From a virus (Duplodnaviria; Heunggongvirae; Uroviricota; Caudoviricetes), in IMG/VR virus record IMGVR_UViG_2663763282_000007: 8,443 nt of DNA. One strand, written 5' to 3'. Positions within the stretch are counted from its first letter, which is position 1; every line of letters starts with the position of its first letter. The translations under genes were made by a program, and so were the position numbers. The notes beneath the pieces were generated by a model. It was not told the DNA's origin. It ran no database searches and was given only the letters and a program-made list of their open reading frames with translations. Below are positions 1 to 378 of the stretch, in pieces.

Positions 1-54
1 GAAAAATATCATCAGATGGCTGCTTAAAAAAAGAACAAATGGTAGTGTCCGCTA

Positions 55-378
55 TTGCCAGTACACCTCAAACTACTCATTGCCAGATGGGAACTGACCG
101 CAGAACAGGCTGTCGCACAGCAGTTAAAAAATCAGGTGTCAAAAGGAAATCTTATCGATACCGGATTTTGTATTTTTGCCCTTAGTAAGCTGGCGATGGC
201 TTTATCCAGTACGCTTGACTCCATTCCTTTGTCCATGCAACGACAGTTCCCGGATTTAACGCCGCGTCATATTGATCATCTGAAAATCCTTATTGCTAAG
301 GGAGCGAATCAGTGCGCGCGTGCGGGGGATAAATTACCGGATTTACTCGATGAATATATCAGAACAACAACTGAGTAA
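55..378 (+). CDS. Nu1: Terminase small subunit (lambda Nu1-like), C-terminal portion only; 5' part lies upstream of the window and/or is disrupted
   Basis: The translation (...TAEQAVAQQLKNQVSKGNLIDTGFCIFALSKLA...IPLSMQRQFPDLTPRHIDHLK...LPDLLDEYI) aligns with the C-terminal ~95 residues of lambda Nu1 as I recall it. It overlaps the start of the downstream terminase large subunit gene by 29 nt, as in lambda. The open frame begins only after TAG at 43-45 (and TAA at 25-27); the listed start at 55 is a TTG and probably not a real initiation codon. Confidence 0.7.
   Translation: MPVHLKLLIARWELTAEQAVAQQLKNQVSKGNLIDTGFCIFALSKLAMALSSTLDSIPLSMQRQFPDLTPRHIDHLKILIAKGANQCARAGDKLPDLLDEYIRTTTE

Follow-up and report, generated by a model that had tools for sequence, protein, structure and literature searches.

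Introduction

In the small terminase of tailed phages (TerS), an N-terminal winged helix-turn-helix domain binds cos and a C-terminal domain binds the large terminase, TerL (PMC4669245). A TerS-like route by which mobile elements interfere with the packaging of a helper phage is represented by the PICI Rpp protein (PMC6739421). A Shigella flexneri genome paper describes prophage regions that are mostly incomplete.

Here we describe the damaged small terminase gene at the left end of an 8,443-nt stretch of DNA from a tailed virus (IMG/VR record IMGVR_UViG_2663763282_000007), referred to as the window throughout, in which all features given below lie on the + strand. The window is part of a cryptic lambdoid prophage of the S. 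flexneri type. We consider it very probable that positions 1–70 are the right end of the insertion sequence IS600 and that positions 71–378 are the 3' two-thirds of a Nu1 gene interrupted after codon 68, with an insertion followed by a deletion accounting for the present arrangement.

Results

The first 70 nt of the window (1–70) constitute the right end of IS600, that is, the last 70 of its 1264 bp, with a run of seven A residues (A7) at 26–32 included; this identity was observed directly, through matches to annotated IS600 copies and through the full-length copies present in window-identical loci. Positions 1–75 yielded 5,393 matches at 95–100% identity in 2,770 of 5,426 complete E. coli genomes, and among the matches listed all were annotated as 'IS3-like element IS600 family transposase'. 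When positions 1–2300 were compared by megablast with phage records, positions 1–72 also matched unannotated sites in Stx-converting phages, on both strands and several times per record, and positions 70–2300 matched lambdoid terminase regions instead. Scattered, two-strand and multi-copy matches such as those of positions 1–72 are the pattern typical of a mobile element.

The coding content of this segment agrees with its identity. In E. coli CFSAN004176, a transposase coding sequence annotated with a 'programmed frameshift' ends at L003 2527, which is window position 27 (L003 2501 being window position 1), and the TAA at 25–27 is therefore the true stop codon of the transposase and EKYHQMAA its true C-terminus. 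Positions 1–27 thus hold the last eight codons and the stop of the OrfB or OrfAB fusion product. A full transposase open reading frame in a related locus (L005 3133..4074) ends in ...REKYHQMAA and matches the NCBIfam model transpos_IS3 at 2.9e-102, and the OrfA of IS600 matches HTH_Tnp_1. The A7 run lies directly 3' of the transposase stop and belongs to the conserved, invariant sequence of IS600.

The right terminal inverted repeat, AGTGTCCGCTATTGCCAGTACACCTCA, occupies positions 44–70 and closes with CA. Read as its reverse complement, TGAGGTGTACTGGCAATAGCGGACACT, it pairs with the left end of IS600, TGAGGTAGCCTGAGTTTAACGGACACT, through the identical stretches TGAGGT, CTG and CGGACACT, that left end spanning TGAGGTAGCC...CGGACACT. 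Measured from this pairing of the ends, IS600 is 1264 bp long and its last bases (...TCA) fall at window position 70. The full-length IS600 in the window-identical loci aligns from 1 to 1264 and ends at the equivalent of window position 70 (L011 4753–6016), and the copy from L003 shares 98.7–99.5% identity with the copies of the window-identical loci over 1–1264. The flank of this IS600 and the flank of the L003 copy have a 7-nt identity in common, AACTACT, which we put down to the choice of the best match among thousands.

Beyond the insertion sequence, positions 70–378 contain, by DNA and profile homology, a remnant of a Nu1 small terminase gene, comprising codons 68–169 and the TAA stop. 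Base 70 is an IS600 base, yet by chance it restores the first base of Nu1 codon 68. The best E. coli match, the prophage of FDAARGOS_943, is 99.6% identical in DNA over 70–2300 and has an annotated small terminase of 169 aa (L002 2800..3309), in which window position 70 corresponds to L002 3001, the first base of codon 68. The match starts at window position 70 or 79 in 23 of the best 25 E. coli matches, the other two covering 1–2300 only as two to three joined pieces at ~89% identity, and it starts in the same way in PhiR12_1, a viable phage obtained on E. coli K-12 in which A, W and B come after an intact Nu1 of 169 aa. Since an intact gene of this type is present in this phage and in many prophages, the small terminase of the lineage is not naturally organized in some different way, an option that a sequence-only reading of the window had left standing.

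The same break is observed directly at the protein level. Aligned with intact Nu1, the fragment encoded in the window aligns only from K68 on; Pfam Phage_Nu1 (PF07471) matches the remnant at 5.6e-19 (68.8 bits, cut-off 30) over profile positions 85–163 of 164 only, and phrog_57 matches it at 1.1e-37 over positions 87–189 of 199 only. The remnant is 45% identical to residues 86–180 of lambda Nu1, and by this relationship it would represent the central and C-terminal, TerL-binding part of the protein. Left uncovered are Pfam Phage_Nu1 positions 1–84 and phrog_57 positions 11–86, and the latter are covered by the intact homologue (residues 1–63, phrog_57 positions 12–86) and by lambda Nu1 (residues 1–66, positions 11–75). 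Residues 1–66 of lambda were scanned because we take the solved DNA-binding domain of lambda Nu1 to comprise about residues 1–68. No Nu1-related sequence was detected in any frame of nt 1–69 by DNA alignment, Pfam or BLASTP. The abrupt onset of Nu1 homology at 70/71 (codon 68) means that codons 1–67 are missing rather than moved into another frame. The N-terminal domain is the one that binds cos, and as the remnant is without it, the missing part is the DNA-recognition module. Three points of the sequence-only reading are thereby borne out: that the Nu1-like frame does not encode an intact small terminase, that only the conserved C-terminal part is left in it, and that the N-terminal DNA-binding domain of its relatives is missing from it.

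When the intact homologue was searched by sequence against the PDB, only chance-level matches came back (E>0.5), with no tie to the structure of the lambda Nu1 DNA-binding domain, and no NCBIfam model matched this type of Nu1. In PHROGs the two halves of this Nu1 type are assigned to different families, phrog_7289 and phrog_1790 (both matched by L002 2800–3306), the N-terminal-half family with 91 positions and labelled 'unknown function', the C-terminal-half family with 114 positions. Because of these separate families, splitting or truncation of Nu1 seems to be frequent among the phage and prophage sequences on deposit.

A different account of the missing domain had been proposed from the sequence alone. 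In frame 1, nt 1–378 read EKYHQMAA, stop, KKNKW, stop and then CPLLPVHLKLLIARWE... (in the longer reading after the second stop, CPLLPVHLKLLIARWELTAEQ...), the stops at the window start being the TAA at 25–27 and a TAG at 43–45. Frame 2 from the window start reads KNIIRWLLKKRTNG... and contains KNIIRWLLKK. These positions, as well as the TTG at 55 and the A7 run, had all been given correctly, as confirmed on re-reading the sequence. The account built on them held that Nu1 is complete but frameshifted, by mutation or by a sequencing error (for example in the A7 run at 26–32), with a frame change between 20 and 94 and an N-terminus continuing upstream in frame 2. Two stops within 15 codons ahead of an open reading frame are statistically not unusual by themselves; the real signal is the sudden loss of Nu1 homology at 70/71, rather than the stops upstream of it. 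The one observation in favor of a frameshift was KNIIRWLLKK, felt to be faintly like AVIKWYAERD of lambda Nu1. BLASTP of the frame-2 peptide produced no alignment with lambda Nu1 at E<=100 and a match of only three residues with the intact 169-aa homologue (E=5.8), and a Pfam scan found nothing. The peptide was rejected as a Nu1 N-terminus on these negatives, and the frame-3 peptide was likewise without Nu1 similarity. In intact relatives, the true counterpart of AVIKWYAERD is ...LDLDAWRDFYISYLRR... (LDAWRDFYISYLRR), which is coded in the 201 nt absent here. As nt 1–70, with the A7 run that was to have been the slip site, match IS600 copies in thousands of genomes and are not Nu1 in any frame, we regard the frameshift as refuted and leave it next to no probability.

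The history of the insertion can be read from related genomes, in which two types of junction at the left side of IS600 were observed directly. The first is found in L017, where the left junction reads ...GAAGAGAAAC/TGAGGT and the right junction ...CACCTCA/AACTACTC; the intact gene reads ...GAAGAGAAACTACTC, so that AAC stands on both sides of the element. This duplication indicates simple IS600 transposition, and on comparison of the L017 junctions with the intact gene, window positions 71–73 (AAC) are the right-hand copy of the 3-bp target-site duplication from the insertion into Nu1. L017 has the same right junction as the window and has the 5' 205 nt of Nu1 directly left of IS600. The 5' 205 nt are also directly left of the element in L016 (CP000266.1, which we take to be S. 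flexneri 5 strain 8401), where the same stretch of the intact reference is matched on both sides of IS600. In L016 and L017, the left side of IS600 adjoins the 858 bp that lead up to the break in the intact gene's locus and comprise its cos region together with the initial 205 nt of Nu1. A string search for the IS600 left end found no match in L016, and the AAC duplication was read in L017 only. The arrangement in L016 and L017 is probably the original simple insertion of IS600.

The second type is found in the genomes closest to the window. A 40-nt pattern spanning the junction was located in S. flexneri SFBU1023 and 'E. coli' ECMA0423, and the junction is found in Shigella-type genomes, with at least 10 independent assemblies sharing it; among the 5,426 complete E. 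coli genomes in RefSeq, the exact IS600/Nu1 junction did not occur, and no place covered at least 80% of window positions 21–120. The window is 100.000% identical over 1–5424 and 5585–6464 to the complete Shigella-type chromosomes CP012735.1, CP024983.1 and CP020336.1. As taken from the window-type loci without masking or nesting (L010, L011, L012, L014 and L019), the gene order is DnaB, NinH, Q, holin, lysozyme, Rz, IS600, Nu1 remnant and gpA. The Rz spanin gene to the left of IS600 is cut to 134 of 155 aa, and the IS600 there is complete at 1264 bp. The left flank of the element, which comes from Rz, reads ...GGGACGGG/ and the right flank /AACTACTC, with truncated Rz sequence adjoining the left end in the deletion-type loci as ...CCGGGACGGG. 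The flanks are accordingly GGG and AAC, with no target-site duplication. The window-type loci also have no match to L006 6345–9333, the ~3 kb that lie between Rz and Nu1 codon 68 in an intact relative. The missing duplication and the absence of this stretch therefore indicate a deletion of ~3 kb, cos included.

In PhiR12_1, cosN (GGGCGGCGACCT) lies 195 bp upstream of Nu1 and is followed by repeated ACCGGACAT motifs. A search for cosN with one mismatch allowed found no copy in the window or in the window-type loci. In the intact relatives L009 (1105–1300) and L006 (8900–9132), three copies of the motif ACCGGACAT / ATGTCCGGT occur in both orientations between cosN and the start of Nu1, and these motifs are likely candidates for the cosB R-type sites of the N-terminal domain of this lineage's Nu1. 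The cosN of the FDAARGOS_943 prophage is altered, reading GGGCGGGAGCGGCGCAG in place of GGGCGGCGACCT.

Taken by itself, the window fits both junction types, and cos together with the 5' 205 nt of Nu1 could still lie on the far side of IS600 in its own genome, as the identical right junctions and 5' parts in L016 and L017 and the AAC duplication in L017 would allow. We consider an insertion without a deletion improbable for this genome. Over 5,424 nt the window is 100.000% identical to the deletion-type loci L011, L013 and L019, and it differs from the simple-insertion genomes by 11–12 substitutions and one indel; it also has the 1-nt gpA deletion of the deletion type, with a 636-aa product, whereas L016–L018 have a gpA of 642 aa. 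To judge from the genomes that are fully identical to it over the overlap, the upstream state of the window would be the deletion type.

The left side of IS600 is a hotspot of further change, and L018 has yet another left flank. Nested insertions in IS600 are present in L005 (1559–4117), L008 (5001–7585) and L017 (2177–6016). The element nested in the IS600 of L005 and L015 belongs to the IS3 family and is accompanied by a CAA duplication, with IS629-like ends (TGAACCGCCCCGGG...) in L005, and in L017 a second copy of IS600 is nested in IS600. E. coli 90-3040 has the same composite of IS600 with a nested insertion sequence, there in other surroundings, beside a truncated holin gene. The interior of the IS600 copy of CP024983.1 (L013 4849–5835) is a run of N, a stretch masked in the collection, and gene calls are absent there because of this run.

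The junction in the window creates an open reading frame of 107 aa (55..378 in the program-made list of open reading frames), in which a TTG start and five codons from the IS600 inverted repeat are joined to Nu1 codons 68–169. Its peptide reads MPVHLKLLIARWE..., and the gene calls in 362 blocks of a public assembly collection include precisely this 107-aa product. The TTG at 55 lies inside the terminal inverted repeat (44–70), and the TAG at 43–45 straddles the inner edge of that repeat with two bases within it. No Shine-Dalgarno-like sequence precedes the TTG (acaaatggtagtgtccgcta TTG), a scan of window positions 1–600 revealed neither a sigma-70-like promoter nor a terminator, and Tandem Repeats Finder returned nothing for the whole window. 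Because the domain is missing and there is no ribosome-binding site and no promoter-like site, we judge the chimeric frame to be non-functional, most plausibly a pseudogene fragment picked up by gene callers.

An expressed and retained product has also to be considered, in which this C-terminal fragment of Nu1 would poison the packaging of superinfecting lambdoid phages by attaching to their large terminase. The fragment keeps the region that binds TerL in lambda, the frame is intact and called in many assemblies, and interference with packaging by TerS-like proteins of mobile elements has a precedent in PICI Rpp (PMC6739421). Against it stand the lack of a ribosome-binding site before the TTG and of a promoter-like site, a start codon that falls within the inverted repeat of an insertion sequence, and neighboring genes of the same operon that are decaying through frameshifts; the identity of the frame across strains is what a young clonal lineage would be expected to show and is uninformative on selection. 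Retention of such a protein is therefore highly improbable. We give equally little credence to the idea that read-through from IS600 might express the frame at 55–378 as a dominant-negative packaging inhibitor of lambdoid phages with the same terminase type; if it were true, a decaying prophage would accidentally provide phage defense.

The remainder of the window contains the lambda head-gene series W, portal, S49 protease/scaffold, D, E, FI, FII and Z, and frameshifts in the packaging and head genes were observed here directly. The large terminase gene gpA (350..2260; Pfam GpA_ATPase 3.1e-53, GpA_nuclease 1e-67) overlaps the 3' end of Nu1 by 29 nt (350–378). Compared with an intact relative, it has a 1-nt deletion near 2187 that replaces the last ~30 residues, so that the C-terminus before the stop reads ...LDLAVQLHPARMQLHNRPLKNWQRSCPEE in the window vs ...LDLAVLAASRKDATAQPTLEELAAKLSGGVNGYSR in the intact protein. 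The C-terminus of lambda gpA is the part that binds the prohead, for which PMC4669245 cites Frackman et al. (1984). Because the simple-insertion strains L016–L018 keep an intact 642-aa gpA, the deletion arose within the deletion-type lineage. In SFBU1023 and ECMA0423 (L004 and L005), gpA has an additional A at the equivalent of window position 948 and lacks a T at that of 1075, a compensating pair that leaves 42 codons out of frame and is absent from the window and from the intact relative; it could be a real mutation or a systematic sequencing error shared by the two.

The portal gene (2461..4054) is split by a +1 frameshift, with T6 instead of T5 at about 3449–3454. The resulting frames, 2461..3516 (351 aa) and 3431..4054 (207 aa), match Phage_portal_2 positions 2–288 and 288–354, and the portal of the intact relative has 531 aa and T5 at this run. 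As the Shigella loci examined share T6, the extra T is a genuine mutation rather than a read error in this record. The prophage is without cos and without the DNA-binding domain of Nu1, its portal is split and the C-terminus of its gpA is altered; it cannot package itself.

Positions 5425–5584 consist of 160 N, a masked stretch or an assembly gap, which replace 74 nt present in all ten related genomes; an insertion (160 nt vs 74 nt) was considered for this difference and rejected, the extra length being the run of N. Coordinates past 5584 are shifted by +86 relative to those ten genomes, and the listed frame 4044..5612 (522 aa) crosses the run, the real S49 protease/scaffold gene encoding 501 aa.

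Discussion

The parsimonious reading of the two junction types is that the insertion came first and the deletion second. IS600 would first have transposed into Nu1 and generated the 3-bp AAC duplication, a state that persists in some Shigella strains. In the lineage of the window, a deletion would then have extended from the Rz spanin gene to the left end of IS600, either as an adjacent deletion mediated by the insertion sequence or by recombination between two IS600 copies, routes that leave indistinguishable traces here. Some 3 kb would have been lost, including cos and Nu1 codons 1–67 with the DNA-binding domain. The outcome would be a cryptic lambdoid prophage whose Nu1 is a pseudogene and which is presumably unable to recognize or cut its own DNA for packaging.

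The correct label for this locus is thus an IS600 right end followed by a 5'-truncated Nu1 pseudogene, rather than a frameshifted or unusually short small terminase, and the 107-aa 'Phage_Nu1' protein in hundreds of public assemblies is a gene-calling artefact across the insertion sequence junction. Beyond correct annotation the importance of the case is small. It offers a worked example of the stepwise inactivation of a Shigella prophage, from the insertion of an IS element through the deletion of cos and the DNA-recognition domain to frameshifts in the portal and large terminase genes.

The closest described systems place the locus on familiar ground. With IS600, an IS3-family element of Shigella and E. 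coli, the window shares the same right-end sequence, the C-terminus and stop of the transposase and the inverted repeat ending in CA, and the copies in window-identical loci also measure 1264 bp and have a two-ORF transposase. There is no difference in sequence, the window simply holding the last 70 bp. The L017 copy has a 3-bp target duplication, and the copy in window-type genomes differs from it in being without one, because one flank of IS600 has been deleted.

As in lambda, the Nu1 remnant immediately precedes the gpA gene, with which it overlaps, and W, B, C, D, E, FI, FII and Z follow. Unlike lambda Nu1, it is without its N-terminal 67 codons and without cos, and it is a fragment, not a working small terminase. 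The N-terminal domains of lambda Nu1 and of the intact 169-aa homologue are themselves too diverged for pairwise detection and are related only via the phrog_57 profile.

The locus resembles the cryptic, IS-riddled lambdoid prophages of S. flexneri in its lambdoid late-gene block, in the insertion or nesting of IS600 and further members of the IS3 family, and in the deletions and frameshifts that affect its packaging and head genes. An IS600 end set against a 5'-truncated Nu1 is an ordinary kind of gene wreckage that is already known and annotated. Compared with these prophages the locus shows no difference that matters, and it is one instance of their general pattern.
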